DNA from: Candidatus Sulfomarinibacter sp.
Lineage (GTDB): Bacteria > Acidobacteriota > Thermoanaerobaculia > Thermoanaerobaculales > Sulfomarinibacteraceae
Length of the DNA stretch: 64,000 bases
NCBI GenBank assembly: GCA_041560205.1
Contig: JBFFBV010000014.1
Coordinates: 3,811-67,810 of the forward strand
Direction: 5' to 3'
This document shows positions 16,245 through 61,275 of the stretch, one piece after another. Both the position numbers and the translations under genes were made by a program. Under the pieces are notes generated by a model, which was not told where the DNA came from, ran no database searches, and saw only the letters and a list, made by a program, of their open reading frames with translations. How positions within the stretch are numbered: the first letter of the stretch is position 1; each line of letters begins with the position of its first letter.

Positions 16245-16409
16245 CCACGATGCAAGATACACGTCCATCCACCCCCACTCACGGACGCGCTTGATTCTTT
16301 TTGAAACCCGAATCCTGCATCCGGGTGTGCGGGCGGGTGGGTGCATCTTGTATCCGGGTGGGTGGACGGGCGGGTGCATCTTGGATCTGGGTCGTCGGGC
16401 GGGTCGGGG
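16245..16409. repeat. composite inverted/tandem repeat element (core GATGCAAGATACA / TGCATCTTGTATCC), copy 1
   Basis: One reverse-orientation unit (16245-16285), an AT-richer spacer, then three imperfect direct units of about 32 nt (16314-16409). TGCATCTTGTATCC lies at 16342-16355. Confidence 0.7.
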
Positions 16410-16415
16410 GGTACA

Positions 16416-46004: not shown

Positions 46005-47456
46005 ATGAGGCCGAAGTTTCAACAGCTTGACGAGGATCTCGCCGACGCGATCATCAGCGAAGCCAAGACGGTGCTCGCCGAGGTGGGGATCGACATTGCC
46101 GACGGGGAGACAAAGGAGCTCCTCGCAGATCACGGTGCGGGGGTGGACGGCGACGGTCGGGTACGCATCGCCGACACCATGGTCGAAGCCGCGCTCGACT
46201 CGGCACCGCCTGCCTTCTCCTTGTATGACGTGATGGGAGAGGAAACCCACCGCTTCGAAGGCAATCGCACCCACTTCACGCCGGGGTCTGCGGCCATCAA
46301 CATCCTCGACCGGGAGTCCGGAGAAATTCGCTCCGCCGTGACCAGCGATCTGGTGGCCCTCGCCAAGCTGGTGAGTGGCCTGGATCGGTATGACGCCCAG
46401 AGCACGGCCTTGGTGTCATCGGACGTCCCCGAGGCCATCTCGGACAGCTATCGCCTCTTTCTCGGGTTGCTCCACTGCGAAAAGCCGGCGGTCACCGGCG
46501 CCTTCACCATTGAAGGCTTCGAAGTCATTCGCGATTTGTTGTTGGCGGTGCGCGGTTCCGCCGAGGAGCTGGCGGCGCGACCCGTGGCGATGCTCACCTG
46601 TTGCCCGACCGCCCCGCTCCGGTGGACCGACGAAGGCAACCGCAACCTGATCGACTGCGCCCGACTCCGCATCCCGGTCGAAATCATCCCGGTTCCCCTG
46701 ACCGGCTTCATGGCCCCGGTGACACTCGTCGGCACCCTGATCCAGCACACCGCCGAGGTGCTCTCCGGAGTCGTCATCGCCCAACTCGTCCAGCCCGGCA
46801 CCCCAGTGCTCTTTGGCGGCTCACCGGCGATTTTCGACGTGCGCTTCGAGACGACGCCCATGGGTGCGATCGAAACGACCATGTTGACCTGCGCCGCGGC
46901 CGAGATCGGACGACGCCTCGGCCTGCCGACCCAGGGCTACATCTCGCTGTCCGACTCCAAGGCCCTCGACGCCCAGGCCGGGCTCGAGACCGGCATCGGC
47001 GCGACCCTGGCTGCCCTCACCGGACTCGACAACGTCTCCGGACCCGGGATGCTCGATTTCGAGAGCTGCCAGAGCCTCGAGAAGCTGGTCGTCGACCACG
47101 AGATCTGCCTGATGACGGACAGGGTGCTGGCTGGCATCGAGCCGCGAGACGATTTCCCGTCCAAGGGCCTCTTCGAGGAGCTGCTGGCCGAAAAGCACCT
47201 GTTGATTGCGGACCACACCCGTCGCCACCTTCGCTCCGAGCTCACCTTTCCGGGGCCCGTGATCGACCGGACCAGCCGCGCGAGGTGGCTCGAGGAAGGT
47301 TCGAAGACCCTCGGCGAAAATGCGGCGAAGGAGGTCGATCGCATCATCGGCGAGTTCACACCGAGCCGGATCGGCGACGACGCCAGAAAGAACCTCGACG
47401 AGGTGATGACCGCCGCCGCCAAGGCCGCAGGGATGGACGCGCTCCCGGAGCGATAG
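46005..47456 (+). CDS. MttB-superfamily methyltransferase (non-pyrrolysine member)
   Basis: 483 aa, continuous ORF with no in-frame TAG. 'TCCPTAPLRWTDE', 'PVPLTGFMAPVTLVGTL', 'GGSPAIFDVRFETTPMGAIET', 'SLSDSKALDAQAGLE'. Confidence 0.8.
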   Translation: MRPKFQQLDEDLADAIISEAKTVLAEVGIDIADGETKELLADHGAGVDGDGRVRIADTMVEAALDSAPPAFSLYDVMGEETHRFEGNRTHFTPGSAAINILDRESGEIRSAVTSDLVALAKLVSGLDRYDAQSTALVSSDVPEAISDSYRLFLGLLHCEKPAVTGAFTIEGFEVIRDLLLAVRGSAEELAARPVAMLTCCPTAPLRWTDEGNRNLIDCARLRIPVEIIPVPLTGFMAPVTLVGTLIQHTAEVLSGVVIAQLVQPGTPVLFGGSPAIFDVRFETTPMGAIETTMLTCAAAEIGRRLGLPTQGYISLSDSKALDAQAGLETGIGATLAALTGLDNVSGPGMLDFESCQSLEKLVVDHEICLMTDRVLAGIEPRDDFPSKGLFEELLAEKHLLIADHTRRHLRSELTFPGPVIDRTSRARWLEEGSKTLGENAAKEVDRIIGEFTPSRIGDDARKNLDEVMTAAAKAAGMDALPER

Positions 47457-47645: not shown

Positions 47646-48233
47646 TCAAGCGCGCCCCATCAGCTGTGATCTCTCGACCGGCGGGAGATCGTCCCAAGCG
47701 CCGGCGAGCCAGGCGACGCCTTCGAGAAAGGCCCGCGCGCGATCGGTGTTGGGGCACACAGAGCGCACCAGCTTCCAGAACTCGGGCGAGTGGTTGAGGT
47801 GGACGGTATGCGCGAGCTCGTGCGCGACCACCGCTTCGAGCACCCAGGGCGGCATCTGACGGAGCGCCGCGTTGAGGCGGACGATCCCGGTCTGGCGGCT
47901 ATAGCTCCCCCACTGCGATGTCTGGTTGGTCACGAATCGCACTTCGGTGACCTGAGGCGGTTCCGGGAAACGCTCCGCTGTCTTGCGAGCAATCGCTTCG
48001 GCCCTGCCGTCAGCGTTGAGGGCCTCAGCACGGGACCTGCGCACGAGACGCCGGGCGAGCTGGACGATCGTCTCCTCGAGCTCTCCTGACGGGACCCGGT
48101 GGGGGGCGCTGACCGAGAGAGTCCTCCCGTGGAGACGGGCATTGATGTTTTTCACCCGTTTGCGCACGACCTTCAGCTCGAGGGTCAAACCGTCGACTTC
48201 CAGAATGCGTACATCATTCGCCATGGCCAGCAT
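47646..48233 (-). CDS. YgjP-like (DUF45/M48-type) zinc metallopeptidase
   Basis: 'VVAHELAHTVHLNHSPEFWKLV' (HExxH plus NHSxxFW). Start at ATG 48233 or 48224. Confidence 0.75.
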   Translation of the reverse strand: MLAMANDVRILEVDGLTLELKVVRKRVKNINARLHGRTLSVSAPHRVPSGELEETIVQLARRLVRRSRAEALNADGRAEAIARKTAERFPEPPQVTEVRFVTNQTSQWGSYSRQTGIVRLNAALRQMPPWVLEAVVAHELAHTVHLNHSPEFWKLVRSVCPNTDRARAFLEGVAWLAGAWDDLPPVERSQLMGRA

Positions 48234-48270
48234 GCTACCCGAACGCGCTACACTCAGCCCGGAGCACCTG

Positions 48271-50676
48271 GTGAGAGAATCGAGCTTTTCCGGCAATTTC
48301 CGCAGACTCGTGGCTGGTGTGGTGCTCGTTCTCGTTGCGGCCGCCCCACCCGCGTTGGCGGACTACTGGTACGAACACTACGAGAACGCGAAGTCCGCTC
48401 TCGACAGCGGCAATTGGAGCCGAGCCGTCGAGGAGCTGCAACAGGCGCTGGAGCGCAAGGGGGACTCCGGCGCGCGGGTGCGCTACTACGGCATGAAGGT
48501 CCGCGAGTACTTCCCCTACCTCAAGCTCGGCATCGCCTACTTTCAGCTCGGACAGTACGAAGCGGCGTTGCAGGCCTTTCAAACCGAGGAGCAGCTGGGC
48601 GCGATCGAGGCCTCGGAGTCCGACTACGCGGAGCTCAGGCGTTACCGGACTCTGGCTCTCGAAGCACTCCTGGAAGCTGCGCAGGCCGAGGAAGAGCGCA
48701 TCGCCCAAATCGTACGTGAAAGCCTCCGCGACGCCGAGATTCTCGAAGGGCAGGGACGGCTACCCGAGGCGATGGAGGCTCTCGGCAAGGGCCTCGCCGT
48801 CGATCCCGAGAACCAGGAGGCCGTCGCCAAGATGGGCGAGCTGCGGACCGAGGTCGTCCGCCGCGACCGTGAACGAGCCGACACGGCTCGAGCGCGAGAA
48901 CTCCTCACTCGGGGGCGGACGCTCCTCGACGAGGAAGACTATTCCGAGGCCTCCAGCCTCTTCCGCCAGGCACTCGAGATTCGCCCGAGCCCGGAAGCCC
49001 AGGACCTCTTCGATCAGGCCCGTGCCGCGCTTCTGGCAGAGATTCAGGCCGAGGAAGACGCCGAAGCGAGGCAGGAGGCGATTAGCTCTGGCCTGAGAAT
49101 GGCCCGGGAGCTCGAGTCCAACGGACGCTTCGACGAGGCCCTCGGCCGGCTCCAGCCAGTGCTCGCCGCGGATCCACAGAATAGAGATGCGCTGGCCCTT
49201 CAGCAACGAATCCTCAGAGGGCAGCAGCTCTCCGCGGAGGAGGCCTCTCTCGCCCGCGCGATCGCGGAAGCGCGGGCCGAGTTCACCGCTGGCAGTTTCG
49301 AAACTGCGATCTCGGCCGCGAACTTCGCCCTCGCCATCGATCCCGGGAATGCCGAAGCGCTCGATGTGGTCCGCGATTCCTACGGTCAGATCAGTCGCCG
49401 GTTGCTCGGTTCACGGACCGTCGAAAACCTCCCGCCTGCAATCCGCTTCGCCGATTTCAGGACCGAACGGGATGACGGCTCCTGGGCCCAACTGGTGCAG
49501 AGGCCGGACTTTCGTCTCAGCGGCGTGGTCATCGACACCTCGCCGGTCGAGGTTCAATTCGAGGCAACGGCCGATCGCGAGATCTCGGGAACCAGCACCA
49601 GCCAACCGATGGGCGACATCTACATCACCGAGTTCGCCCTCGACGATCTCCTCGCCGACGGCGAAACGACCTACCTGCTGTACGCGACCGACAACGGCGG
49701 CCGGACCACCATGTCGGAGTACACGGTCATCTACTCGCCACCCTTTTATCGGTCCCTTTGGTTCCAGCTGTTCGTCGCATCGATACCGATTGTGGTGCTC
49801 ACCGCGGTGTGGAGCCAGCGCCTTCGAAGGCGGCGGCAACTCATGAAGCGCCGTTTCAATCCCTTTATCGCCGGAGCCCCGGTACTCGACACCGACATGT
49901 TCTTCGGACGAGACCAGCTCGTCGAGCGCATCCTCCAGACCATCCACAACAACAGCCTCCTCCTGTACGGAGAGCGGCGAATCGGCAAAACCTCGCTCCA
50001 ACACCAGCTCATGCGACGACTGAAACAGCTCGACGACCCGCAGTACGATTTTTTCCCGGTCTATGTCGACCTGCAGGGCACGCCGGAGTCGCAGTTCTTC
50101 GCGACCCTCGCGGAAGACGTCTTTCACGAGCTCGCACCCGTGCTCGATGGAATGAGGCCGGGGGACGGGCTGCCCGATAAAACGGACTACGGTTACCGCG
50201 AGCTGGTCGCCGACCTTCGTCGGGTGATCAAGGCGCTCGAGGCAAGGACCTCCAAAAAGGTCAAGCTCGTGCTGCTGATCGACGAGGTCGACGAGCTCAA
50301 CGCCTACGACCCGCGGATCAACCAGCGGCTGCGAAGTCTGTTCATGAAGAGCTTTGCCGAAAACCTCGTAGCGGTTGTTTCCGGGGTGGAGATCCGCAAG
50401 CAGTGGGACAAGGAAGGCAGTCCCTGGTACAACTTCTTCGAGGAGATCGAGGTGACGCCGATCGACCGTGACGACGCGGTCGAGCTGATCACACGACCCA
50501 TCGGCGGCGTGTTCAAGGTCGATCAAAATGTCATCGACCGGATCATCGAGCTCACCGATCGCAAGCCCTACCGCGTCCAGCGGCTCTGTATCGCCCTCGT
50601 CAACCGCATGTACGAGCAGGGTCGGCGGCAGATCACGATCGCCGATGTGGAAACCGTCGCCGGAAACGACCCGTGA
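48271..50676 (+). CDS. type-A ATPase cassette 1: signal/TM - periplasmic TPR array - beta domain - TM - P-loop ATPase
   Basis: Start uncertain: GTG 48271 after GGAG, or ATG 48223/48232, both of which collide with the divergent gene. The protein has 'LVAGVVLVLVAAAPPALA', about 400 aa of TPR, and TM 'LWFQLFVASIPIVVLTAVW'. ATPase motifs: 'NPFIAGAPVLDTDMFFGRDQL', Walker A 'GERRIGKTS', Walker B 'LVLLIDEVDE', and 'EGSPWYNFFEEI'. Confidence 0.75.
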   Translation: MRESSFSGNFRRLVAGVVLVLVAAAPPALADYWYEHYENAKSALDSGNWSRAVEELQQALERKGDSGARVRYYGMKVREYFPYLKLGIAYFQLGQYEAALQAFQTEEQLGAIEASESDYAELRRYRTLALEALLEAAQAEEERIAQIVRESLRDAEILEGQGRLPEAMEALGKGLAVDPENQEAVAKMGELRTEVVRRDRERADTARARELLTRGRTLLDEEDYSEASSLFRQALEIRPSPEAQDLFDQARAALLAEIQAEEDAEARQEAISSGLRMARELESNGRFDEALGRLQPVLAADPQNRDALALQQRILRGQQLSAEEASLARAIAEARAEFTAGSFETAISAANFALAIDPGNAEALDVVRDSYGQISRRLLGSRTVENLPPAIRFADFRTERDDGSWAQLVQRPDFRLSGVVIDTSPVEVQFEATADREISGTSTSQPMGDIYITEFALDDLLADGETTYLLYATDNGGRTTMSEYTVIYSPPFYRSLWFQLFVASIPIVVLTAVWSQRLRRRRQLMKRRFNPFIAGAPVLDTDMFFGRDQLVERILQTIHNNSLLLYGERRIGKTSLQHQLMRRLKQLDDPQYDFFPVYVDLQGTPESQFFATLAEDVFHELAPVLDGMRPGDGLPDKTDYGYRELVADLRRVIKALEARTSKKVKLVLLIDEVDELNAYDPRINQRLRSLFMKSFAENLVAVVSGVEIRKQWDKEGSPWYNFFEEIEVTPIDRDDAVELITRPIGGVFKVDQNVIDRIIELTDRKPYRVQRLCIALVNRMYEQGRRQITIADVETVAGNDP

Positions 50677-52583
50677 GCGCCGCGCAGGCAAACCCGTTCG
50701 TCGTGGGCCAGTGGGTCAGAGGCGACCGATTCTATGGGCGAGGTGCGCTGATCGAGGAGATCCTCGAGGGCCCTCGAAACTCGCTCTGGGTGCTCGGGAC
50801 GCGGCGCGTCGGGAAGACCTCGCTGCTCAAGCAGCTCGAGCACCTGACGTCGATGGACGGCCAGAACTACCTCCCCATTTTCTGGGATTTCCAGGGGGCC
50901 GATGACCCCGACGAACTCAACTTCACGTTTTCGGACGCCCTGCTCGACGCCGAGGAGCGCCTCGACGCGATTGGAGTCGAGGTTTCCGAACTCCAGTTCG
51001 AGGATCTCTTCACCTCGATGGGAAAGCTCCGTCGTAGGCTTCGTAGCCTTGGGCGTTCGCTTCTTTTGTTGTGTGACGAGGTCGAAGAAATCCTCAACCT
51101 CCACCGTCAGGATCCGGCGCTCCTCCGCAAGCTCCGTCGCGCCATGCAGTCTCAGGACGGCGTTCGTTCGGTGCTCACCTCGTCGGTGCGGTTGTGTGAT
51201 CTCGCAGAGCAACGGGACGACACCTCGCCCTTTCTCCACGGTTTCAGCCCGCCGCTCTACATCGCCGGTCTCTCCGACGAGGAGGCGATGGCGCTGGTTC
51301 GACAGGACAACTGGCCCTCGCCTGCCCGTCCCGCCATCGACGAAAAGGACGCTGTCGAGATCTGCCGCCGCTGCGACAGGCATCCCTATCTGACGCAGCT
51401 CGTCTGCAAACGTCTGATCGACACCGGTGACCTCGAAGAGGCTTGCCATCAGGTCGCCTCGGACCGCATGATCAGTTACTTCTTCTCGGTCGACTTCGAT
51501 CTCTTGTCGGTGACAGAGAAAACAGTTCTCCGGTTGATCGCCGAGCAGGGGTCGGCGACCGAAGCGTCGCTGCATGCCGTCATGCAGGCCGACACGGCGG
51601 ATCGAGATGACGCGCTGCAACGGTTGGAGAACCTCGGTTTCATCGGTTGTGATGACGATCGCAACTACGTGCTGCCGAGCTTCTTCCTTCGCCGCTGGCT
51701 CGAGGATCTCGCTGAGACCGAGCCGGCTCCTCAATCTGATTCGCTCCACGAGGACCCGACGATTTCGGTGCAGACCGTCGACAACCGCTACACGCTGCAC
51801 GAGGAGATCGGCAGGGGAGCCACCGGCAGCGTCTACAAGGCGCGCGATGCAGTGCTCGACACCTGGGTGGCGGTCAAGCTGTTGAAGCCGGAGTACGCCG
51901 CCAACCGTGAGGCGCTCGATCGGGTTCGACAGGAAATCCTCTTGTCACGGGACATCGCCCACCCCAACATCCTCCGCGTCTACCACCTCGGCACGTCCGA
52001 AGGCGGGACCTACATCACCATGCAGTGGATCCGGGGCGAAACCCTTGCGGACGTGATCGCAGCGCGCGGAGCACTGCCGATCGCGCAAGCCTTGTCCGTC
52101 GCCGAGAAGCTTGCCTCGGCGTTGGCGGCCGCCCATGAACGCCAGATCCTCCACCGCGACATCAAACCAGGCAATATCCTGATCGACTCGGACGGTGAAC
52201 CGTACCTCGCCGATTTCGGACTCGCTCGACTGATCGGGGGCCAAGGCGTCACCCGGCACGGCGTTTTCGTCGGCACGCCCCACTACTCCTCGCCGGAGCA
52301 GGTCGCACTCGAAGAGCTCGACGAGCGTTCCGACATCTACTCCCTGGGTCTGGTCATCTTCGAGATGGCGACCGGTCGCCGGCCCTTCGAAGCCGACACG
52401 GTGCCCGAGATCCTGGCCATGCAGCGCAGCGAGCCCCCACCGGATCCGGCAACGATTGCGCCCAAGATACCGGGCGAGCTGGCGGCGATCGTGCTGCGCT
52501 GCCTGGCCAAAGACCCCGCGGAGCGGATCGCCACCGCGGTGGAGCTCAAGGAGGCGCTTCGCCGCGTCGCCGATGATCTTTGA
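50673..52583 (+). CDS. type-B ATPase cassette 1: P-loop ATPase fused to Ser/Thr protein kinase
   Basis: GTGA overlap with the type-A gene. ATPase motifs 'NPFVVGQWVRGDRFYGR', 'GTRRVGKTS', 'LLLLCDEVEE'. Kinase motifs 'GRGATGSVYKA', 'VAVKLL', 'HRDIKPGNIL', 'DFGLAR', 'GTPHYSSPEQ'. Confidence 0.85.
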   Translation: MSAAQANPFVVGQWVRGDRFYGRGALIEEILEGPRNSLWVLGTRRVGKTSLLKQLEHLTSMDGQNYLPIFWDFQGADDPDELNFTFSDALLDAEERLDAIGVEVSELQFEDLFTSMGKLRRRLRSLGRSLLLLCDEVEEILNLHRQDPALLRKLRRAMQSQDGVRSVLTSSVRLCDLAEQRDDTSPFLHGFSPPLYIAGLSDEEAMALVRQDNWPSPARPAIDEKDAVEICRRCDRHPYLTQLVCKRLIDTGDLEEACHQVASDRMISYFFSVDFDLLSVTEKTVLRLIAEQGSATEASLHAVMQADTADRDDALQRLENLGFIGCDDDRNYVLPSFFLRRWLEDLAETEPAPQSDSLHEDPTISVQTVDNRYTLHEEIGRGATGSVYKARDAVLDTWVAVKLLKPEYAANREALDRVRQEILLSRDIAHPNILRVYHLGTSEGGTYITMQWIRGETLADVIAARGALPIAQALSVAEKLASALAAAHERQILHRDIKPGNILIDSDGEPYLADFGLARLIGGQGVTRHGVFVGTPHYSSPEQVALEELDERSDIYSLGLVIFEMATGRRPFEADTVPEILAMQRSEPPPDPATIAPKIPGELAAIVLRCLAKDPAERIATAVELKEALRRVADDL

Positions 52584-52586
52584 TCT

Positions 52587-53936
52587 TTAAAAGCTGTAGA
52601 TCGCCGACAGGGCGAAGACGTCGGCATCATCCGAAAAATCAGCGCCGATATCGATCTGCAGACGCCTCAACGCAAGCCCGGCACCGACACTGAGGTGCAG
52701 CTGGTCCTTGCCCGGCGGATACAGGGCACGGTCGAAAGGATCCTCGCCGATGAATCTGAATCGGTGGTCGGGGTCGCGCCACAGGCCCACACGGAGCGCG
52801 ACGCCCGGGCTCGTCTCAATGAAGAGGTATTCGAGCCCGAATCGCAGCTCATTGCCATCCTCCAGGGCGATGAACCTCGTATCGATCTGCTCCGAGTCGA
52901 GGGACTCCATGATGACCGAGTACTCCACGCGATCCCACTCGAAGCCAACCGTGACAGCGCCGCTCGGAGATCGGTAGGCGATCCCCAGCCCCCAGACATC
53001 CGGGATCGAGATATGCTGCCCCGAAAGGCCGCCGAGATCCGTCCCCTCTGGTTCCCAGTGCGCCGGCCCGGCACGGTTTTCGATGGTGTACTCGAAATCC
53101 GGTCCCTGCCGATAGACGCCACCGAGCCGCCAATCCTCGGCGAAACGCCACAAAAAGCCGGCGCTGATTCCCCAGGCCGAACTATCACTCACGAACTGGC
53201 CGCTCAAAAATAACCGGTCGGCGAGAAAGGAATTGGCTTCCCAAAAGGTTTCTGGGTACCGGTCCATGAGGTATGCCAATCCCGAAACATCGATGGATCC
53301 GACAAAATACGAAACACCGAGGCCGACGCTGAGAGACTCACTCAGCTCGACGGCACCCGCGATCCCGTTGTTGATGATCTCGAAGTCGGTCGTCGTGATC
53401 TGGTCGATCTCGCGCCGAGTGCCGCCCTCAGCGGCATCACCGAAGAGACCATTGAGCTCCGTGCGCACCGCGAAGTCGGCCAACTGGTGACGATAGACGG
53501 CCAGAGACCATTTTCTGCCAGGGTAGACGAAGGAAAGAAAGGACACTCCGGAGGTCGTATCTTCCGAGAGCCCGGTTCGAAGACCACTAACGGTGTCGAT
53601 ACCGTAACCGGTCGGCGCCCCCAAAGCCCGCCCCCCCGCCGTGTAGGAGGTTTCGTACTGGCGGCGCCTCAGCTCGAGGGAGATTTCGGGGCGCAGGAGC
53701 TGGACGAGACCGGCCGGGTTGGCGAAAGCGGCGGTGGCGTCGTCGGCCAGGGCGACGAAGGCTCCCGCGAGTCCCATGCTCCGCGCACCCGGGTTGGAGA
53801 AGCTGAACTCGAGCGAAGGCGGCGCCTCCTGCGCCCAAGTGAAAGCAGGGATCAGCACCACCACGAGGGCGAGGACGGCGCCCGTAACGCGCCGTTCCAC
53901 AACGAGATCCGTTTTCCACCTGCGAGCGCCAGTCAT
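52587..53936 (-). CDS. outer-membrane beta-barrel, FadL/TodX/PorV-like (paralogue 1)
   Basis: Signal peptide, 'FSFSNPGARSMGLAGAFVALADDATAAFANPAGL', alternating beta pattern, C-terminal '...ALSAIYSF'. An alternative GTG start at 53900 aligns better with paralogue 2. Confidence 0.65.
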   Translation of the reverse strand: MTGARRWKTDLVVERRVTGAVLALVVVLIPAFTWAQEAPPSLEFSFSNPGARSMGLAGAFVALADDATAAFANPAGLVQLLRPEISLELRRRQYETSYTAGGRALGAPTGYGIDTVSGLRTGLSEDTTSGVSFLSFVYPGRKWSLAVYRHQLADFAVRTELNGLFGDAAEGGTRREIDQITTTDFEIINNGIAGAVELSESLSVGLGVSYFVGSIDVSGLAYLMDRYPETFWEANSFLADRLFLSGQFVSDSSAWGISAGFLWRFAEDWRLGGVYRQGPDFEYTIENRAGPAHWEPEGTDLGGLSGQHISIPDVWGLGIAYRSPSGAVTVGFEWDRVEYSVIMESLDSEQIDTRFIALEDGNELRFGLEYLFIETSPGVALRVGLWRDPDHRFRFIGEDPFDRALYPPGKDQLHLSVGAGLALRRLQIDIGADFSDDADVFALSAIYSF

Positions 53937-53952: not shown

Positions 53953-54047
53953 CGCGGAAAAGCTTCACGAGACCCTCATCACGACCTCAGGATTCCATCA
54001 AGCGGTATCCTCCTCGGCGAGCCACATTCGATGGTGAGGGGGACGTG

Positions 54048-56615
54048 ATGCATCGAATCCTGAAGATCGCGGCGCTCGCCATGGCAGTCCTCGTGACGGC
54101 AGCACCGGTCTCGGCGCAGAGGCGGTGGACCGTCACCGGCCTTGATGTTCCAGAGCTCGCCGCCGTAGACGAGATGATGCAGGACATCATGATGGGTTAC
54201 GGCATCCGAGGGAGCACGGTAGCCATCGTCAAAGACGGCCGCCTCGTGTACGCACGTGGATTCACCTGGGATCAGCCCAATGTCGAGCCCGTCCAACCCA
54301 CCACCCTCTTCCGCATCGGCAGCATCAGCAAATCGATCACCTCGGTCGCCATTCACCAGCTCATCGAGCAGGGTGCGCTCACCCATAACACACCGGTGAT
54401 GTCGATCATCGACCTCGAGCCACTCTGGGGAACTCCGACGAACCCTCGGCTCGATTCAACAACGGTAGATCACCTGCTGACCCACACCAGTGGCATGTAC
54501 TCGCTGGACAATATCTACACCGTGGCGGGTATCGTCGCCGCCGCGCACGGTGTCGAGCCGCCACCGACCAAGCAGGAGGTCATTTCATACATCATCGCAC
54601 GGTCGTTCCTCTTCGAACCCGGAACCTCCTGGGACTACAATAATTACGGCTACATCATGCTCGGCATGCTGGCCGAGCGGATCACCGGTCTCGATTTCCC
54701 AGAATATGTCTTCGAAAACGTCTTTCGTCCGGTGGGCGTGAGCCGTGTGCGGATGCCGCACACCCTCCGTGTCGACCTCGCTCCCACCGAGACAACCTAT
54801 GACGGCGTCGAAGGCGATCCGTACGCGACAATCGCCGAGCACGCCTTTGCAGCCGGCCTCATGGTGATGGCGGCACCCGACCTGGCGCGCCTCTACTCCG
54901 CCCTCTTCGATTTCCCCGACGCGAGCGGTCTGCTCGAGCCTGCCACCATCGACGAGATGCTTTCGATACCCTTTCCCGCAGCCGAGGAGCTGGGATACGG
55001 GCGCGGCTGGTTCAACGAGGACTTCTTCGTCAACTCGGGTCACACCGTCGGCTGGCTCACGAACCCGAATGACCACCTCCGGATTCACGCTCACAGTGGA
55101 GGCGGCGCCGGTGTCCACACCCTCGCCCTGTGGCGCTCGGACGGCATCGTCCTCGTCTGGTTCACCAACAAGGACCCGGTGATCCCGACCCTCGACTTTC
55201 CGGAAATCACTTCGTGGCCCGAGCACGATCTCTGGGAGTCCGTGGGTATCTCACTGGAACCCGTTGGCTCGGCGCCAGTCGAATCCTGGATCCCCGCCGT
55301 CGCCCACATGAACGGGGTCGGTGACAGTGCCTGGCGTTCCGACGTCGGTCTGCTCAACCGTTCATCCGGCACCAACCAGGTTCGTCTGCGATACCACCTC
55401 GAGAACGGATTCACCGATCGTGAACTCGAGCTGGCCGCAGGTGAGTCGCGTGTTATTTCGGACATTGTCGGGTCCTTCGGAGAGAACGGCTTCGGTCCCC
55501 TCCAGGTCTTTTCGTCAGATGCCCTCACCGCAACCTCGAGAACCTATGACCAGTCTCCACACGGCACATTCGGCCAGTCTCTCGACGGCGTCACCGCCAC
55601 TGGAGGGCTCGAGGGTGGTGAGTCGGTCGTGCTCATGCAGCTCCGCGAGGACGATTCCGCGAGATCAAACATCGGCATTCACAACCAGTGGCGGCGTTCT
55701 GCTCGGGTCGCGCTCGAGTTCTATGATGCCAACGGCACCCTGGTCACCGCTCACAGTCGTGAGATCCCCGGCCAGAGCACCGTCCAGATCGACCGCCCCT
55801 TCCGAAGCCTCGGCGGTCGCAGTGACATCGATTCCGGCTATTGTGTGATCACCGTCAGCTCCGGCCAGGACATCTACGTTTACGCTACGGTCATCGACAA
55901 CGCCACCGACGATCCCACAGCGGTACCGATGAAGAGTGGAACCGGCCACTCCCGACAATGGATCGCCGCCGCAGCACACCTTCGGGGTGCCCACGGCAGC
56001 GTGTGGAGGACCGACCTCGGCCTGCTCAACCGGTCCGCCGCGCCTGCCGTGGCCGAGATCACGTTTCGCCGCGACGACGGCGAACACGCCTCGGTCACTG
56101 TCGACGTCATGGCTGGCCAGCAGCTCGTCATCGACGACGTGGTTGCGCGACTGGGCATGACCGGGTCGGGCGCCATCGAGATCTCTTCCGACCGACCCCT
56201 CATGGCGAGCTCCCGCACCTTCAATGCTGCCGCCGAGGGCACCTTCGGCCTCTTTCTCGACGGCGTCCCTGACGAAAGTGCGGCCTACGCGGGTGACACG
56301 GTGTGGCTGGCCCAGCTGCGGCAAAGCGACGTCTTTCGCACGAACATCGGCATCTCCAACAACGGGGACTCAAACGCCAGAGTTCGGATTCACCTCTATG
56401 ACTCCACGGGTGCCGAGCTCGGCTCCCGCGTTCGAGATCTCGACCCGGGAGCCTGGCTTCAGTTCCAGGAGCCTTTTGCTTTGATCGGGGCTCGCAACAA
56501 CATCGAAGCTGGGTACGCGCGAATCGAGATCGAGTCTGGGCAGAGGGTCATCACCTACGCGTCGGTGATCGACAACGCGACCAACGACGGCACGGCCATC
56601 ACGATGAAGAGGTGA
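54048..56615 (+). CDS. secreted serine hydrolase (beta-lactamase/PBP-like fold) with two C-terminal 218-aa repeats
   Basis: Start moved to ATG 54048 (signal 'IAALAMAVLVTAAPVSA'). 'FRIGSISKSITS' (SxxK) and 'LLTHTSGM'. Tandem repeats at 55286-55937 and 55959-56612. Confidence 0.8.
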   Translation: MHRILKIAALAMAVLVTAAPVSAQRRWTVTGLDVPELAAVDEMMQDIMMGYGIRGSTVAIVKDGRLVYARGFTWDQPNVEPVQPTTLFRIGSISKSITSVAIHQLIEQGALTHNTPVMSIIDLEPLWGTPTNPRLDSTTVDHLLTHTSGMYSLDNIYTVAGIVAAAHGVEPPPTKQEVISYIIARSFLFEPGTSWDYNNYGYIMLGMLAERITGLDFPEYVFENVFRPVGVSRVRMPHTLRVDLAPTETTYDGVEGDPYATIAEHAFAAGLMVMAAPDLARLYSALFDFPDASGLLEPATIDEMLSIPFPAAEELGYGRGWFNEDFFVNSGHTVGWLTNPNDHLRIHAHSGGGAGVHTLALWRSDGIVLVWFTNKDPVIPTLDFPEITSWPEHDLWESVGISLEPVGSAPVESWIPAVAHMNGVGDSAWRSDVGLLNRSSGTNQVRLRYHLENGFTDRELELAAGESRVISDIVGSFGENGFGPLQVFSSDALTATSRTYDQSPHGTFGQSLDGVTATGGLEGGESVVLMQLREDDSARSNIGIHNQWRRSARVALEFYDANGTLVTAHSREIPGQSTVQIDRPFRSLGGRSDIDSGYCVITVSSGQDIYVYATVIDNATDDPTAVPMKSGTGHSRQWIAAAAHLRGAHGSVWRTDLGLLNRSAAPAVAEITFRRDDGEHASVTVDVMAGQQLVIDDVVARLGMTGSGAIEISSDRPLMASSRTFNAAAEGTFGLFLDGVPDESAAYAGDTVWLAQLRQSDVFRTNIGISNNGDSNARVRIHLYDSTGAELGSRVRDLDPGAWLQFQEPFALIGARNNIEAGYARIEIESGQRVITYASVIDNATNDGTAITMKR

Positions 56616-56656: not shown

Positions 56657-56791
56657 ATGGAAACTCCGCATCAGGGTAACGCATCACCATTTACGGGCGC
56701 AGGCGAACCGCGTTCCGGTGACATCGCGATCACGGTCTTGACCGCCTTCATTCTGCTCGTCGTGCTGGTCGTCGTCGCGATCCTCGCTTAG
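56657..56791 (+). CDS. small tail-anchored membrane protein (44 aa, tentative)
   Basis: Own translation: METPHQGNASPFTGAGEPRSGDIAITVLTAFILLVVLVVVAILA. AGGAGG SD 6 nt upstream. The stop overlaps the convergent barrel gene by 4 nt. Confidence 0.3.
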   Translation: METPHQGNASPFTGAGEPRSGDIAITVLTAFILLVVLVVVAILA

Positions 56792-58143
56792 AAGCTGTAA
56801 ATCGCCGACAGAGAGAAGGTATCGACAGGGTCCGACAAGTCCGCGGCGAGATCGATCTGAAACGTGCTGAAGGCGAGACCCAGACCCAGCGCCACGTGGA
56901 CTTCATTCACCCCGGGCTGGAAGAGGGCCCTGTGTTCGGGATCATCACTGGTGCTGCGAAATCGATGATCGGGATCAATCCACACACCGGCCCTGAGAGC
57001 GAGCAAGGGCCGGCTGGCGAGAAATGCGTACTCGGCGCCGAGCCGGAGCTCGTCTCCGTCATCGGCGACGAGCGAGATCGTGAGATCGAGATCGGGGTCG
57101 AGGCTCTCGATCACCTCGGCATCGAAGCTCGCAAAGATCGAGGAGTACTCGATACGGTCCCACTCGAACCCGACGGTGAGCGCGCCGTCCGACGATCTGT
57201 ACGCGAGGCCGAGTCCATAGACATCGGGGAACTGCATCGGTGTCGCGATCGTGAAGACCGTCGCGCCCGGGAAAAAAGTCGGGTCGAGAAACTGCGCAAG
57301 CGCCCCAGCCTGAGCGTCGTACACCACCCTGAACTCGGGCGCCTGGCGGTAAAAACCACCGAGGCTCCAGTTCTCGGCGAAGCCCCAGAGGAGACCCGCG
57401 CTCAGACCCCAGTCCGTATCGTCGGTCGCCATTGCACCATTGGCAATTTGGCGCTCGGGCAGGTAGGAGGTCGGGCTGAAGAAGCTCTGCAGCGTGTCTT
57501 CGTCGTAGATCGCCCACTCGTAGGGGGCATCGAGCCGTCCGCGAAAGTAAACCACACCGATCCCGAGGCTGAAATGATCACTCAGCCGATAGGCACCGGC
57601 GACGCCGTAGCTGACGATCTCGAGCTCGGTCGACCACCTGCGGTCGATCTCGCGCGAGGGCAGGCCGGTCGCGGAATCGGTGTGGAAGAGCCCCTGAGTC
57701 CCCGTCTGGGCCCGAAAGTTCGCCAAGCGGTGCGTGTACGCCGCGATGGACCACTTCCCCTTCGGATAGACAAAGGACAGGAATGACAGACCGGTCAGCT
57801 GTTCTTCCGAGACGGCCGACCGGAGACCGTCGACGGTGTCGAGGCCGATGCCGGTCGGTTCGCCGTCATACCGGCCCCCTTCGATGTACGGCGTCGAATA
57901 CCGCCAGTGGCGGAGCTCCGCCGAGATCTCGAGGGAGGCGAGCTGCACCAATCCCGCCGGATTGGCGAAAGCGGCTGTTGCGTCATCGGCGAGGGCGACA
58001 AAGGCTCCGCCGAGACCGAGACTGCGCGCTCCCGGGTTCGAAAAGCTGAACTCGAAGGTGGGCGGGGTCTCCTGGCCGGTAGCTGTCGCAGGAGCGACCA
58101 CCATTCCCAACGCAAGCACAAAAATGGCTTGGCGTGCGTTCAT
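56788..58143 (-). CDS. outer-membrane beta-barrel, FadL/TodX/PorV-like (paralogue 2)
   Basis: Start moved to ATG 58143 (MNARQAIFVLALGMVVAPATA). 'FEFSFSNPGARSLGLGGAFVALADDATAAFANPAGL' and C-terminal '...SLSAIYSF'. Confidence 0.65.
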   Translation of the reverse strand: MNARQAIFVLALGMVVAPATATGQETPPTFEFSFSNPGARSLGLGGAFVALADDATAAFANPAGLVQLASLEISAELRHWRYSTPYIEGGRYDGEPTGIGLDTVDGLRSAVSEEQLTGLSFLSFVYPKGKWSIAAYTHRLANFRAQTGTQGLFHTDSATGLPSREIDRRWSTELEIVSYGVAGAYRLSDHFSLGIGVVYFRGRLDAPYEWAIYDEDTLQSFFSPTSYLPERQIANGAMATDDTDWGLSAGLLWGFAENWSLGGFYRQAPEFRVVYDAQAGALAQFLDPTFFPGATVFTIATPMQFPDVYGLGLAYRSSDGALTVGFEWDRIEYSSIFASFDAEVIESLDPDLDLTISLVADDGDELRLGAEYAFLASRPLLALRAGVWIDPDHRFRSTSDDPEHRALFQPGVNEVHVALGLGLAFSTFQIDLAADLSDPVDTFSLSAIYSF

Positions 58144-58190
58144 TGTGCGACCCGAGATCGAAGCTGCACCGCCATGGCTCCAACTCGGGA

Positions 58191-58199
58191 ATCGTAGCA
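58191..58199 (-). promoter_or_regulatory. extended -10-like TGCTACGAT upstream of barrel paralogue 2
   Basis: Minus-strand TGCTACGAT 47 nt upstream of ATG 58143. Confidence 0.35.
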
Positions 58200-58285
58200 C
58201 GGGGAAAACCCTCATCGGATCCTCATCTCAACCTCAAGTCTCCCGGCATCCCACGCCCTAGCTTGGTGAGGGAAGGGAGGACCCT

Positions 58286-58987
58286 ATGAACAACAGGTTT
58301 CCGAATCAGGTCTTCGCGGTGGCTGTGATCACGTTCTTCACCGTCATGGCATCACTGCCGGGGACCACCTCCGCCGAAGATGATCCGTGGAAAGCGCAGC
58401 TTGCTGACGGTGATCGGTGGATGGTCCGCTTCGCCGCGGTTTTGATGAACCCGAGCGGAAGTGAGGTGAATGTCGCCGGTACCGACGATCAATACTCCTA
58501 TGACGGCAAGAACGGCTACGGTTTCGCGATCGATTTCGAGTACCGCGCTGCCCGTCGACTCGGCATCGATTTTGGCGTGATCTCCGCGTCGCCCGGCATC
58601 GATGTCACCGTCGAAGATGAGTTTGCGAGCGTCTCTGCGGAGGCCGACATCAGACTCACACCGATCTATGCCGCCGCCAATATCTATCTCACCCCGGAGG
58701 GCCGTTTCAATCTCTACATCGGACCCATCTTGGCCTACGTCATCTATGAAAGCTTCGAGCTCAACTCCGGCCCCGGTCAGAGTGAACGGTTCAGCACCGA
58801 GGACGGCTTCGGATACGGCGCCGTGTTGGGTCTGGACATCGAGGTCGGAAGCGGAAAATGGTTCCTCAATACGGCCATCAGGTATCTCGACACCACACTC
58901 GAAGCAGCTCCGCGTGATGACGATGGCGTCGGAAAGGCGGACCTCAACCCGACAATCTTCAGCTTCGGCTTCGGCGTCAGGTTTTGA
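58286..58987 (+). CDS. OmpW-family outer-membrane protein
   Basis: Signal peptide 'FTVMASLPGTTSA', 8-strand-sized beta pattern, C-terminal 'FSFGFGVRF'. Confidence 0.65.
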   Translation: MNNRFPNQVFAVAVITFFTVMASLPGTTSAEDDPWKAQLADGDRWMVRFAAVLMNPSGSEVNVAGTDDQYSYDGKNGYGFAIDFEYRAARRLGIDFGVISASPGIDVTVEDEFASVSAEADIRLTPIYAAANIYLTPEGRFNLYIGPILAYVIYESFELNSGPGQSERFSTEDGFGYGAVLGLDIEVGSGKWFLNTAIRYLDTTLEAAPRDDDGVGKADLNPTIFSFGFGVRF

Positions 58988-59087: not shown

Positions 59088-59807
59088 ATGAATGTCGTTC
59101 GCACCCCGCTGCGCTCCCTGCTCGGCCTCTTCCGAGTCCTCGGGAGGGAGGCGCAGGAGAAGCCGCCTTCGCCACCGACGACCTCCGGTGGATCTGGCGG
59201 GGAGGACCGCGAGCGCCTGATCCTCCGCATCCTCAGTACGCTCCGCAACAACAGCATCCTCCTGTGCGGCACGACTGGCAGCGGCAAGACCTCGATCCTT
59301 CTCGAGCTCAAGGATCGTCTCGCGGCCGGCGGGGATCCTGCGACGGTATTCTTTCCGGCCTACGTCAATCTCGAGGGCGTGCCCGAGCAGCTGCTCTTCG
59401 CGACGGTCGCCGATGCGGTTCTCGAGCAGCTCGACTTCGCGCCGCCGAGCAAGGTCGAACGCTTCGGCGCGGACTACGGGCACCGAGAGCTTGTCGGCGA
59501 CTTCCGAGCGGTCATCCGGACGCTCAAGCAATCGAGCCCCAGATCGGCCAGGCTCGTTCTCCTAGTCGATCACATCGACGAGCTCAACACCTATGACCCA
59601 CGGACGACCCAACGCGTCCGAGGTCTCTTCATGACGGGTCTCGATGGAGTCCTCGTGATGGTGGCAACCGCGGTCGAGATCGACAAGCGCTGGGAGCAGG
59701 AGGGGAGCCCCTGGTACAACTTCTTCGAGGAGATCGGCCTCCCCGAGCCGCCGAGCACGGATGCGGACCCGGACGAAGGCCGGGATACAATGGCGCGGAA
59801 TGAATGA
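59088..59807 (+). CDS. type-A ATPase cassette 2: minimal P-loop ATPase
   Basis: Start moved to ATG 59088. Walker A 'GTTGSGKTS', Walker B 'LVLLVDHIDE', shared 'EGSPWYNFFEEI'. Lacks the N-terminal sensor and the C-terminal lid of cassette 1. Confidence 0.7.
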   Translation: MNVVRTPLRSLLGLFRVLGREAQEKPPSPPTTSGGSGGEDRERLILRILSTLRNNSILLCGTTGSGKTSILLELKDRLAAGGDPATVFFPAYVNLEGVPEQLLFATVADAVLEQLDFAPPSKVERFGADYGHRELVGDFRAVIRTLKQSSPRSARLVLLVDHIDELNTYDPRTTQRVRGLFMTGLDGVLVMVATAVEIDKRWEQEGSPWYNFFEEIGLPEPPSTDADPDEGRDTMARNE

Positions 59808-61275
59808 ACAACCCGCGATCGAAGGGGCCCCTGCCGGCGACTTCAGGCTTGCGGACTGGCTGGTCCAGCCGAGCCTCAACCGACTTACCAGCGACGACCG
59901 GGTCATCCAGCTCGAACCCAAGCTGATGGACGTGCTGGTCTACCTGGCTCGGAACGCCGGGCGGGTGGTTTCGAAGCATGAGATCACAGACGCCGTGTGG
60001 CCCGAGGTGTTCATCACCGAATCGGTCATCACCCGTTCGATCGCTGGGCTGCGGCGCGCCTTTACAGACGACGTCAAGAATCCGAAGTTCATCGAGACGA
60101 TTTCGAAGCGCGGCTATCGTTTGATCGCCGAAATTCGTCCGATTTCGATCGAGGCGAGCCGGCGCTTCGGTCACCAAGAGCGGACGCCGGCCGGTTCTTC
60201 AGAAGCGTCAGCGGCAGCCGTTCCCTTCGTCGTCGGACAGTGGGTCCGGGGCGAAACCTTTTACGGACGGACTTCCGTTATCGACGAGGTCCTCCGAGGC
60301 AACCGCAACTGGTTGTGGCTGCTCGGGACCCGGAGGATCGGCAAGACCTCGGTGCTCAAGGAGCTCGAGCACCGCGCCCTGAGCTCGCCCGATCTCGGTT
60401 TCCTGCCGGTCTTCTGGGACCTCCAGGGTGCGGACCGACCGGAAGAGCTCCACCGCGACTTCGCCGACGCGCTCCTCGACGCCGAAGAACGCTTCAGCGA
60501 CCACGGTATCGCCCTCTCCGACGTCCAATCGGACGATCTCTTCGAATCTCTCGGGCACATCCGCCGCACCCTGCTGACGAAAGACCTCCGTCTCCTGCTG
60601 CTCTGCGACGAGGTCGAGGAGCTGATCCAGCTCCAACGCAAGGACCCGTCGCTGCTTCGCAAGCTCCGCAGGGCGCTGCACTCGCGGGACGGCATCCGTT
60701 CGGTGCTTGCATCGAGCGTGCGCCTGTGGAAGCTCGCCGAGCCCGACGAGGACACCTCCCCGTTTCTCGATGGATTCACGCCACCGCTGACCATCGGATC
60801 GTTGGAGCCTGAAGCCGCCCGAAACCTCGTCCGGCAGAGCCAGCTGCCCGAGGCGTCGCGCCCCGATTTCAGCGATCAGGAGGTCGAGCGAATCCGCGAA
60901 CTCTGCGGCAACCACCCGTACCAGATCCAGCTCTTGTGCCGGCGTGCGCTCGACCGTGGAGATCTCGACGAAGCCATCGACGACGTCGCTCACGATCGAG
61001 CGGTCGGGTTTTTCTTTTCCGTCGACTTCGGACTTCTCGGCGACACGGACCGCACCGTCCTCCACATTCTCGCCGGGGAGGATCACGCACCACTCGAAGC
61101 CGTCCAAGGCCAACTTGAGGACCAGCCAGATGCCGTCGCGACCAGCCTCACAATGCTGGAGAGCCTGGGTCTGGTCGGTCAGGGTATCGACGGAGGTTTT
61201 GCCGTCACGAGCCACTTCCTGCGCCGGTGGCTGCGCGAGGCAAACCCCGAATCGCCGGCCTCACCGAAAGCCTGA
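59800..61275 (+). CDS. type-B ATPase cassette 2: OmpR/CadC-type wHTH fused to P-loop ATPase
   Basis: 8-nt overlap (ATGAATGA) with the type-A gene. wHTH: 'FRLADWLVQPSLNRL...LEPKLMDVLVYLARNAGRVVSKHEI...VWPEVFITESVITRSIAGLRRAF...ISKRGYRL'. ATPase: 'PFVVGQWVRGETFYGR', 'GTRRIGKTS', 'LLLLCDEVEE'. Confidence 0.8.
   Translation: MNEQPAIEGAPAGDFRLADWLVQPSLNRLTSDDRVIQLEPKLMDVLVYLARNAGRVVSKHEITDAVWPEVFITESVITRSIAGLRRAFTDDVKNPKFIETISKRGYRLIAEIRPISIEASRRFGHQERTPAGSSEASAAAVPFVVGQWVRGETFYGRTSVIDEVLRGNRNWLWLLGTRRIGKTSVLKELEHRALSSPDLGFLPVFWDLQGADRPEELHRDFADALLDAEERFSDHGIALSDVQSDDLFESLGHIRRTLLTKDLRLLLLCDEVEELIQLQRKDPSLLRKLRRALHSRDGIRSVLASSVRLWKLAEPDEDTSPFLDGFTPPLTIGSLEPEAARNLVRQSQLPEASRPDFSDQEVERIRELCGNHPYQIQLLCRRALDRGDLDEAIDDVAHDRAVGFFFSVDFGLLGDTDRTVLHILAGEDHAPLEAVQGQLEDQPDAVATSLTMLESLGLVGQGIDGGFAVTSHFLRRWLREANPESPASPKA

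Follow-up and report, generated by a model that had tools for sequence, protein, structure and literature searches.

A Receptor ATPase Coupled to an ATPase–Kinase Fusion in Candidatus Sulfomarinibacter: Sensor and Output Arm of a Proposed Trans-Envelope Signaling System

Results

The DNA analyzed here (the window) is a stretch of 64,000 nucleotides from Candidatus Sulfomarinibacter sp. (GenBank assembly GCA_041560205.1, contig JBFFBV010000014.1, positions 3,811 to 67,810 of the forward strand). Two consecutive genes in this window code for a membrane-spanning ATPase with a periplasmic array of tetratricopeptide repeats (A1: TPR receptor ATPase) and for an ATPase module fused to a Ser/Thr kinase (B1). 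A paralogous pair, A2 and B2, follows 6.5 kb downstream, and genes for FadL- and OmpW-like outer-membrane proteins lie in the same cluster (Table 1).

A1 is contained in an open reading frame (ORF) that extends from 47983 to 50676 on the + strand. Kyte–Doolittle analysis of the protein gave exactly two hydrophobic segments (residues 10–32 and 495–518). The first closes on a small-x-small sequence (ALA, VWA, ASA etc.) followed by D-Y-W-Y-E-H-Y, which is invariant in an alignment of 26 homologues (55–81% identity). A small-x-small motif at this position fits the −3/−1 rule for cleavage by signal peptidase I and hence a TPR array outside the cytoplasm. Behind the second segment, half of the next 16 residues are Lys or Arg (RLRRRRQLMKRR). 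In Pfam, residues 37–376 match TPR_1 (59.9 bits, cut-off 27.8), TPR_2 (51.4 bits, cut-off 27) and other TPR families, and residues 540–792 match nSTAND1 (39.5 bits, cut-off 27.1) and, more weakly, AAA_22, ATPase_2, AAA_16, and NACHT. An AlphaFold2 (AF2) model of A1 (predicted local distance difference test, pLDDT: 77.6) consists of helices from residue 32 to 378, a beta-sandwich (390–488), a transmembrane (TM) helix (496–525), and an alpha/beta ATPase (573–800). In the helical array, TPR hairpins alternate with helices of about 40 residues. The top Foldseek matches of the full model are generic TPR superhelices only, and the beta-sandwich gained no classification from this search. Regardless of whether the signal peptide is cleaved, the TPR array and the beta domain of A1 are periplasmic and the ATPase is cytoplasmic.

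Full-length homologues of A1, periplasmic domain included, occur in many metagenome-assembled genomes (MAGs) of Acidobacteriota at 55–82% identity. In the 26-homologue alignment, the first periplasmic unit is highly conserved (GDSGARVRxYGMKVxxYFPYLKLGIAY), and the invariant residues of A1 include W33, Y34, H36, Y37, G64-D65-S66-G67, R69, R71, Y73-G74-M75, and Y80-F81-P82-Y83. To judge from this conservation, the unit looks like a putative binding site.

The C-terminal part of B1 matches Pfam Pkinase at residues 373–621 with 175 bits (cut-off 31.7, E 2.5e-51). All kinase motifs are present (GRGATGSV, VAVK, the alpha-C Glu in RQEI, HRDIKPGN, DFG, and SPEQ), and conservation of the catalytic motifs across 115 full-length homologues is 98% or higher. 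By these motifs B1 is predicted to be an intact Hanks-type Ser/Thr kinase; no other ORF of the window matches this kinase domain at E ≤ 1e-3. The N-terminal ATPase gave weak matches to ATPase_2 and nSTAND1 below the cut-offs (residues 18–170). Neither B1 nor B2 contains a hydrophobic segment by Kyte–Doolittle analysis. Like those of A1, full-length homologues of B1 are found in many Acidobacteriota MAGs (59–82% identity), and this degree of conservation in both proteins speaks for a sensor with a housekeeping role and against a gene engaged in an arms race.

The GTG start codon of B1 at 50673 overlaps the TGA stop codon of A1 at 50674–50676. An overlap of this type (NTGA) recurs in 35 of 48 co-directional A-to-B pairs from other genomes. 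In the remaining pairs, B mostly starts within a few nucleotides of the A stop codon. Across the pairs, GAGG is often present 4–5 nucleotides upstream. The conserved overlap argues for co-translation of A1 and B1. The NCBI annotation starts A1 at ATG 48232 (814 residues), whereas the N-termini of several homologues coincide with GTG 48271; therefore, we favor the latter start.

These results agree in part with an initial annotation of the stretch. The receptor topology proposed there for A1, with TPR array and beta domain outside, one TM helix, and an NTPase inside, is borne out by Pfam, hydropathy, alignment, and the AF2 model. The description of B1 as a second type of NTPase joined to a kinase with all catalytic motifs, and as the sole Ser/Thr kinase of the window, also stands. 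Translational coupling of the two genes, the preference for the start codon at 48271, and a divergent YgjP-type HExxH peptidase next to A1 (86.6 bits) were likewise upheld, as was the claim that the two NTPases are of distinct types.

With regard to this last point, the cytoplasmic domain of A1 and the N-terminal 350 residues of B1 are homologous yet distinct (25% identity, E 6e-15). Each carries an hhGR motif ahead of the P-loop and a lid with (K/H)PY, and Walker A and B are intact in both. The hhGR motif reads FFGRD in A1 (544–548) and FYGRG in B1 (20–24); its Gly and Arg, as well as the Walker A and B motifs, are invariant in the respective homologues. In the B1 module, a lid with (G/D)xHPY is followed by a predicted winged helix, whereas A1 contains a lid with KPY and no winged helix. 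The winged helix of B1 gave weak sequence matches to MarR-type structures in the PDB (E ~0.1), and A1 matched the PDB marginally by sequence (2qen, E 6e-5). An AF2 model of B1 residues 1–350 (pLDDT 73) gave as best Foldseek matches 2qen (a PF01637 Walker-type ATPase, E 2e-9), archaeal and eukaryotic ORC/Cdc6, plant NLRs (RPP1, Roq1), and MalT. The template modeling (TM) scores of these matches are low (0.3–0.4) because the domain arrangement differs. According to this model, the B1 module (B-module) is most probably the core of nucleotide-binding domain (NBD), lid, and winged helix that is common to ORC/Cdc6 and STAND proteins. The features of STAND proteins reportedly listed by Leipe, Koonin and Aravind in 2004 are a P-loop NTPase with intact Walker A and acidic Walker B motifs, an hhGR(E/D) motif N-terminal to the P-loop, and a GxP-type helical lid followed by a winged helix; A2 departs from the first of these (see below).

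Curated family models cover these modules only in part. A1 alone passes the Pfam nSTAND1 threshold (PF20703, 27.1 bits), and is thus the only formal member of this family; B1 (22.3 bits), A2 (23.9), and B2 (18.6) remain below. None of the proteins reaches the ATPase_2 threshold (PF01637, 33.2 bits; A1 31.1, B1 26.3, B2 21.8), and no NCBIfam family reaches its cut-off for A1, B1, A2, or B2. Hence, the ATPase parts of B1, A2, and B2 have no curated model at cut-off in Pfam or NCBIfam. Source databases label proteins of A1 and B1 type "hypothetical protein" or "TPR repeat protein".

Table 1. Features of the A1/B1 Cluster and Their Positions in the Window
Feature	Position	Strand	Basis
A1 receptor ATPase, 801 residues	48271–50676	+	ORF; Pfam TPR and nSTAND1; homologues; AF2 model
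A1 signal peptide, residues 1–30 (...APPALA|DYWYEHY, bar marks the site)	48271–48360	+	hydropathy; site conserved in 26 homologues
A1 periplasmic TPR/long-helix array	48364–49404	+	Pfam TPR; invariant columns; Foldseek
A1 periplasmic beta-sandwich, residues 390–488	49438–49734	+	AF2; conserved block NIPPAIRF...GVVIDxSPV...ATD
A1 TM helix (495–516), then RLRRRRQLMKRR	49753–49854	+	hydropathy; Lys/Arg count
A1 cytoplasmic A-type ATPase	49855–50673	+	Pfam nSTAND1, AAA_22, ATPase_2; PDB 2qen E 6e-5
A1 ATPase motifs, including lid with KPY	FFGRD 49900–49914; Walker A GERRIGKTS 49969–49995; Walker B LLIDEVDE 50272–50295; SPWYNFFEEI 50419–50448	+	invariant in 26 homologues
GTGA start/stop overlap A1/B1	50673–50676	+	sequence; NTGA in 35 of 48 related pairs
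B1, B-type ATPase module and Ser/Thr kinase, 636 residues	50673–52583	+	ORF; Pfam; homologues at 59–82% identity
B1 B-module (NBD, helical lid, winged helix)	50673–51722	+	AF2 pLDDT 73; Foldseek; weak MarR-type matches
B1 B-module motifs	FYGRG 50730–50744; Walker A GTRRVGKTS 50796–50822; Walker B LLLLCDEVEE 51060–51089; HPY 51378–51398; winged helix ~51474–51707	+	
B1 Hanks-type kinase domain	51789–52535	+	Pkinase 175 bits; conservation in 115 homologues
B1 kinase motifs	G-loop 51810–51833; VAVK 51867–51878; HRDIKPGN 52152–52175; DFG 52212–52220; SPEQ 52290–52301	+	
A2, short soluble paralogue of the A1 ATPase; Walker B LLVDHIDE, no catalytic Glu, no lid	59088–59807	+	BLASTP; orthologue alignment
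B2, CadC/OmpR-type winged helix and B-module; start overlaps A2 stop	59800–61275	+	Pfam Trans_reg_C 61 bits; BLASTP
TGATG-N6-TGAGG-N6-TGAGG-N6-TGAAG, then TTTTCCGCGTGCTAGGAT; upstream of FadL1, in the FadL1/beta-lactamase-fold divergent region	53963–54000	−	
Perfect TGAGG-N6-TGAGG-N6-TGAGG, then TTTTCCCCGTGCTACGAT; upstream of FadL2, in the FadL2/OmpW divergent region	58210–58236	−	
FadL-family outer-membrane protein 1 (FadL1), convergent with B1	52587–53936	−	Pfam Toluene_X 37.7 bits; conserved neighbor
Beta-lactamase-fold serine hydrolase, 855 residues, duplicated C-terminal domain	54048–56615	+	Pfam Beta-lactamase 164 bits; conserved neighbor
Small protein with C-terminal TM helix	56612–56791	+	conserved neighbor; hydropathy
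FadL-family outer-membrane protein 2 (FadL2), true start probably near 58143	56788–58215	−	Pfam Toluene_X 45.9 bits
OmpW-like outer-membrane protein	58286–58987	+	NCBIfam OmpW E 4e-9, below cut-off; orthologues annotated OMP_b-brl/OmpW
YgjP-like HExxH metallopeptidase, divergent from A1	47646–48233	−	Pfam YgjP-like 86.6 bits

The B-module belongs to a larger family: searched with a profile, 1.84 billion cluster representatives yielded 302 clusters at E ≤ 1e-30 and, at the looser limit of E ≤ 1e-10, 1410. Domain fusions were surveyed in 86 long members, which carry Pkinase (19), Trans_reg_C (13), ECF (extracytoplasmic function) sigma factors (3–4), SIR2 (3), CHAT (2), TIR (2), FHA (2), and SpoIIE (1). 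Judged by these fusions, the B-module appears to behave as a portable switch that is joined to regulatory outputs in closer relatives and to effectors of conflict systems in more distant ones. Scanning one genome per species with a B-module profile gave 72 loci (cited by number, such as L057), for which domain maps were drawn by phmmer searches of all six-frame ORFs. These loci derive from Ca. Sulfomarinibacteraceae, which are the closest (77–78% identity), from other Thermoanaerobaculia, Holophagae, Vicinamibacteria, and Polarisedimenticolia, and from Woeseiaceae and other gammaproteobacterial MAGs.

An A-type receptor gene almost always adjoins a B-module gene and at least one FadL-like gene in this set, and FadL- and OmpW-like genes are nearly always adjacent to the A and B genes. 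On three contigs with a B1 homologue, the order is A, B-kinase, FadL-like, beta-lactamase-fold, 43-residue protein, second FadL-like, OmpW-like, short ATPase, and Trans_reg_C with ATPase; all of these genes are present in the window as well. The output domain of B varies between loci: some encode a kinase, some an OmpR/CadC winged helix, and some no output domain at all. Most Acidobacteriota loci contain A followed by B-kinase. In L024, L058, and L060, A is followed by a B-module without output (B-only) and B-kinase is encoded separately. Thermoanaerobaculaceae show the order A, B-only, OmpW, winged-helix-B, FadL or the order winged-helix-B, A, B-only, FadL. In Woeseiaceae loci, A is divergent from winged-helix-B, FadL follows, and there is no kinase. 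Two Thermoanaerobaculia loci (L057 2018–11059 and L065 1232–11053) lack both B-kinase and FadL1: A is directly followed by the hydrolase, and FadL2, A2, and winged-helix-B are kept. The kinase-less lineages suggest that there are several output arms, of which the kinase is one, and that some lineages can dispense with it. The winged-helix-B of Woeseiaceae (of the type of L036 9635–11491) also carries a C-terminal extension with TM helices, which starts with ELKRRNVVRVGIAYVVVAW, and a gene for a 546-residue lipoprotein-like product (L036 7755–9395) lies between winged-helix-B and the divergent A in loci of this type.

By BLASTP, A2 is 48% identical to A1 (E 3e-58), and the modules of B1 and B2 are 53% identical over 351 residues (E 8e-118). 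The winged helix of B2 matches the CadC model of NCBIfam with E 7e-30 and 104 bits, which is below the cut-off of 400. A2 ends directly after SPWYNFFEEI, an invariant motif that is also present in A1. The Walker B Glu is lost in 11 of 11 A2 orthologues (D-H or D-G for D-E), and in L004, L010, and L011 Walker A has decayed, too. Given these substitutions, A2 appears to be a pseudo-ATPase that would act as a non-catalytic partner subunit. Orthologues of A2 are encoded in L004, L006–L008, L010, L011, L053, L055, L057, and L065.

The regions upstream of FadL1 and FadL2 share an element of about 50 nucleotides, cTGAGG-N6-TGAGG-N6-TGAGG-gTTTTCCcCGTGCTAcGAT. The TGAGG repeats have a period of 11 bp and lie beside the beta-lactamase-fold gene and the OmpW-A2-B2 operon, respectively. 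Allowing two mismatches, the triple repeat occurs three times in the window (0.25 expected), always upstream of the two FadL genes, and none of 100 shuffles reached this number. With at most one mismatch, 1.17 Mb of related loci contain 27 matches: 19 upstream of FadL genes, four in the A-hydrolase intergenic region of L057 and L065, and three in the intergenic region between B-only and OmpW of L066, L068, and L070. The third repeat precedes a −10-like hexamer (TAcGAT) by about 18 nucleotides. Binding sites for activators of the PhoB/OmpR type likewise consist of repeats with an 11-bp period at similar spacing to the −10 element. Winged-helix-B is the only DNA-binding protein that is conserved in the clusters.

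Several neighboring genes deserve brief description. The beta-lactamase-fold protein ends in an extension of about 470 residues with two similar halves (WIPAVAHMNGVGDSAWRSDVGLLNRS... and WIAAAAHLRGAHGSVWRTDLGLLNRS...), neither of which has a match in Pfam. The small TM protein is 42–43 residues long in other loci (L001 14011–14142, L002 11392–11520, L004 14092–14223) and its gene either directly follows that of the beta-lactamase-fold protein or lies upstream of FadL2. Both FadL-like proteins show a weak N-terminal match to PorV/PorQ (32 bits, cut-off 90), which is probably merely a common N-terminal plug motif.

On the other side of A1, the YgjP-like gene is conserved only in loci of the Sulfomarinibacteraceae type. 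Depending on which start codons are used (48233 or 48224 on the − strand for the YgjP-like gene, 48271 or 48232 for A1), the divergent starts are separated by at most about 40 nucleotides (48224–48271), so that the promoters should lie inside coding regions or the transcripts should be leaderless. Scans of 47.4–61.6 kb for consensus sigma-70 promoters and terminators gave nothing above chance. Further upstream, an uninterrupted ORF (46005–47456) encodes a homologue of MttB-family methyltransferases (237 bits), presumably a non-pyrrolysine member, which together with a GFO/IDH/MocA oxidoreductase forms a conserved upstream neighborhood in Sulfomarinibacteraceae.

The initial annotation had also placed two FHA domains in an operon at 6–16 kb (9253–11679 and 12755–14101) and considered a functional link between them and B1. 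Neither proposal held up. No match to Pfam FHA or Yop-YscD_cpl was found at E ≤ 5. Pfam detected no domain in the 12755–14101 protein (ORF 12446–14098); the 9253–11679 protein (ORF from 9238) contains four PEGA domains and an FGE-sulfatase domain. Inspection by eye revealed degenerate FHA-like stretches that lack the canonical phosphothreonine-binding GR/SxxH residues. Furthermore, no homologue of the operon was found within 10 kb of a B homologue at any of the 72 loci, which, by the refutation test set out in the initial annotation, speaks against the link at least as far as local co-occurrence is concerned. We therefore rejected an FHA-mediated partner for B1. The genes of the local cluster provide a far better-supported context for this protein. 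The operon (6000–16200) also codes for a MotA/ExbB-like protein (11763–12749) and two vWA-like proteins (14105–16200), and the 12755–14101 protein shows, by eye, an Hsp70/actin-like middle region; this combination of genes is unusual.

Discussion

From the topology of A1, the coupling and paralogy of the ATPase modules, and the conserved neighborhood, we consider it somewhat more probable than the alternatives taken together that a conserved trans-envelope signaling system built from two paralogous STAND/ORC-like ATPase modules has its sensor in A1 and one of its output arms in B1. As a function we propose an ATPase relay that regulates the uptake of hydrophobic substrates, with B1 as the phospho-signaling branch. 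In such a relay, A- and B-modules would associate via their ATPase domains, as ORC/Cdc6 and STAND proteins oligomerize. A periplasmic cue would alter how the A1 ATPase associates, in a nucleotide-dependent manner, with the B-module, and the resulting clustering would activate the B1 kinase. The cue would probably be either a hydrophobic compound that enters through FadL or OmpW or the state of these channels. We propose the TGAGG repeats as a candidate operator for B2, which would bind there to control FadL1 and the hydrolase as well as FadL2 and OmpW-A2-B2. The weakest step is a modulation of the A2/B2 arm by B1, either by phosphorylation or by partner exchange; the latter is conceivable since A- and B-modules are interchangeable paralogues.

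More tentatively, and with some doubt on our part, the A/B pair may represent an undescribed class of bacterial transmembrane signaling. In this class, a single-pass receptor with a STAND/ORC-like ATPase would act by nucleotide-dependent hetero-oligomerization on a paralogous ATPase with a swappable output (Ser/Thr kinase, OmpR/CadC winged helix, or ECF sigma factor), and in the present case a TGAGG operator would control outer-membrane channels for hydrophobic compounds. Literature on nSTAND1, on STAND signaling with kinase, winged helix, FadL, TPR, or transmembrane parts, and on Sulfomarinibacter yielded no description of such a system.

A number of observations weigh against the relay as proposed. 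Gene coupling and paralogy are the sole basis on which a physical A–B interaction is presumed. The AF2 models are only moderately confident (predicted template modeling scores, pTM, of 0.54 and 0.32), and the Walker A region of A1 is poorly modeled. The assignment of the TGAGG repeats to B2 is circumstantial: the window encodes another OmpR-type regulator (16341–17156), though one that is not syntenic elsewhere, the TGAGG repeats were not found in Woeseiaceae, and a search for pentamer repeats with a period of 10–11 bp ahead of FadL came up empty there and in several Acidobacteriota. The winged helix of Woeseiaceae is more divergent. Some lineages do without the kinase, and so B1 may serve an unrelated target. 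Finally, fusions of distant B-module relatives to TIR, SIR2, and CHAT effectors indicate that this module also serves conflict systems. As a separate observation, an alignment of the Woeseiaceae FadL upstream regions (L035, L039, L040, L047, L049, L050, L073) contains a different conserved element, CCCTATTGAG / GTAgGcAGAnCTCCCTATTGAGCG and variants, about 20–40 nucleotides upstream of the gene.

The stable association with FadL also invites the reading that the FadL-like barrels are themselves the sensors, and that the TPR array of A1 would contact their periplasmic face and relay occupancy to B1 and B2 in analogy to FecA-FecR-FecI. In every lineage, also where no TGAGG repeats were found, FadL-like genes are the neighbors that most constantly accompany A and B. 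TPR arrays are modules for protein–protein interaction, and the periplasmic part of A1, with approximately 460 residues and long helices, could span much of the periplasm. On the other hand, the repeats upstream of both FadL genes imply that, at the least, these genes are regulated targets too. Although compatible with most data and different from the relay only in the identity of the primary sensor, this variant seems to us unlikely in its specific form. We give still less credence to an independent kinase pathway, in which A1/B1 would sense an envelope cue and act on distant targets, for example the FHA-like proteins at 6–16 kb, and adjacency to FadL and B2 would reflect common ancestry rather than function. 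In its favor, Hanks kinases of bacteria frequently have pleiotropic roles, the A/A2/B2/FadL set can do without the kinase in L057, L065, and Woeseiaceae, and FHA domains do occur in two of the 86 B-module family members. Against this idea stand the absence of Pfam FHA matches from the named proteins, the absence of operon homologues from all 72 neighborhoods (0/72), and the 53% identity of the B1 and B2 modules, which points to a common partner.

The most remote of these readings, and in our opinion a very improbable one, is that A1/B1 is an anti-phage or conflict system, specifically an nSTAND-type immune sensor pair, in which the TPR array recognizes the invader and the kinase is the effector. 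A1 passes the Pfam cut-off for nSTAND1, a family that was defined in conflict systems (PMC10907252), distant B-module relatives carry TIR, SIR2, and CHAT, and the B1 kinase domain matches kinase models of PADLOC (PD-T4-6, mad6). However, the PADLOC-DB 2.0 matches of B1 concern the generic kinase domain only. A single match at 21 bits was obtained for A1 and none for A2 or B2, and no defense family matched the ATPase modules. The cluster contains no nuclease, TIR, or protease effector. The A1 sensor is 55–82% identical across Acidobacteriota classes, unlike fast-evolving immune sensors, and the synteny with FadL, OmpW, and the winged-helix regulator is stable across 72 species rather than patchy or island-like. 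A periplasmic sensor would also be poorly placed to meet cytoplasmic phage components. On balance, a role in defense is unlikely.

Bacteria use few known routes to pass signals across the inner membrane: two-component histidine kinases, chemoreceptors, anti-sigma/ECF pairs, receptor Hanks kinases, and ToxR-like regulators. If the trans-envelope relay is real, a receptor whose STAND/ORC-like ATPase transmitter acts on a paralogous, output-bearing ATPase would add another such route. The Acidobacteriota and Woeseiaceae that carry these genes, at least about 70 species, are abundant in marine sediments, and through its tie to FadL, OmpW, and the serine hydrolase the system may govern the uptake of hydrophobic organic matter such as lipids. 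The proposal can be tested directly on the predicted operator, on the degenerate A2 subunit, and on the kinase-less variants that occur in nature.

Comparison with Known Systems

Among known signaling proteins, the nSTAND1 NTPases of conflict systems (Kaur, Burroughs, Iyer and Aravind; used in PMC10907252) resemble the present proteins in that A1 scores above the gathering threshold and distant members of the B-module family carry TIR, SIR2, and CHAT. In contrast to these NTPases, the present proteins are accompanied by no effector or effector-associated adaptor domains, their synteny with transport genes is conserved, and their outputs are regulatory (kinase, winged helix). With ToxR/CadC and FecA-FecR-FecI, the system shares a CadC-type winged helix (B2), a genetic link to an outer-membrane channel, and, as proposed here, a periplasmic signal. 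Unlike ToxR/CadC, B2 of the window has no TM segment, whereas the winged-helix-B of Woeseiaceae does have C-terminal TM helices; the lack of any hydrophobic segment rules out B2 as a ToxR/CadC-like transmembrane regulator. Transmission would also differ from both systems, as it would proceed via ATPase modules instead of a single polypeptide or an anti-sigma factor.

The kinase domain of B1 places the protein near the receptor kinases PknB and PknK (PknB_PASTA_kin, 293 bits over the kinase domain only). In contrast to receptor kinases of this type, B1 contains neither a TM segment nor an extracellular domain, and the receptor is a separate protein. A kinase and a STAND ATPase are likewise united in PknK, but in B1 the ATPase precedes the kinase, which is the reverse of the order in PknK. 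In the AfsK/AfsR system of Streptomyces, a Ser/Thr kinase acts on a regulator that consists of an OmpR-type winged helix and a STAND ATPase. The presence of a Hanks kinase and an OmpR-family winged-helix regulator with a STAND-like ATPase in one system suggests, by analogy, kinase-to-regulator signaling here. Membership in the AfsK/AfsR family was rejected because B1 scores 78.6 bits on the AfsK model (cut-off 1300) and neither BTAD nor TPR was detected by Pfam in B2, so that the likeness is one of analogy only. Moreover, the kinase described here carries the ATPase module of the regulator, and AfsK/AfsR contains nothing equivalent to the membrane receptor ATPase A1.

The closest parallels are STAND regulators such as MalT, AfsR, and GutR, and the ORC/Cdc6-like archaeal ATPases of PF01637; the hhGR motif and intact Walker A and B motifs are shared, and probably so is the NBD/lid/winged-helix core. 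As in STAND regulators, the core is fused to DNA-binding or other outputs and TPR repeats serve as sensor. What sets the present proteins apart from these regulators is that the TPR sensor resides on a separate, membrane-anchored paralogue and faces the periplasm, and that two distinct ATPase types form a coupled pair. We therefore regard A1/B1 as the visible half of what would be a conserved two-ATPase signaling system, a variant of STAND-type signaling.

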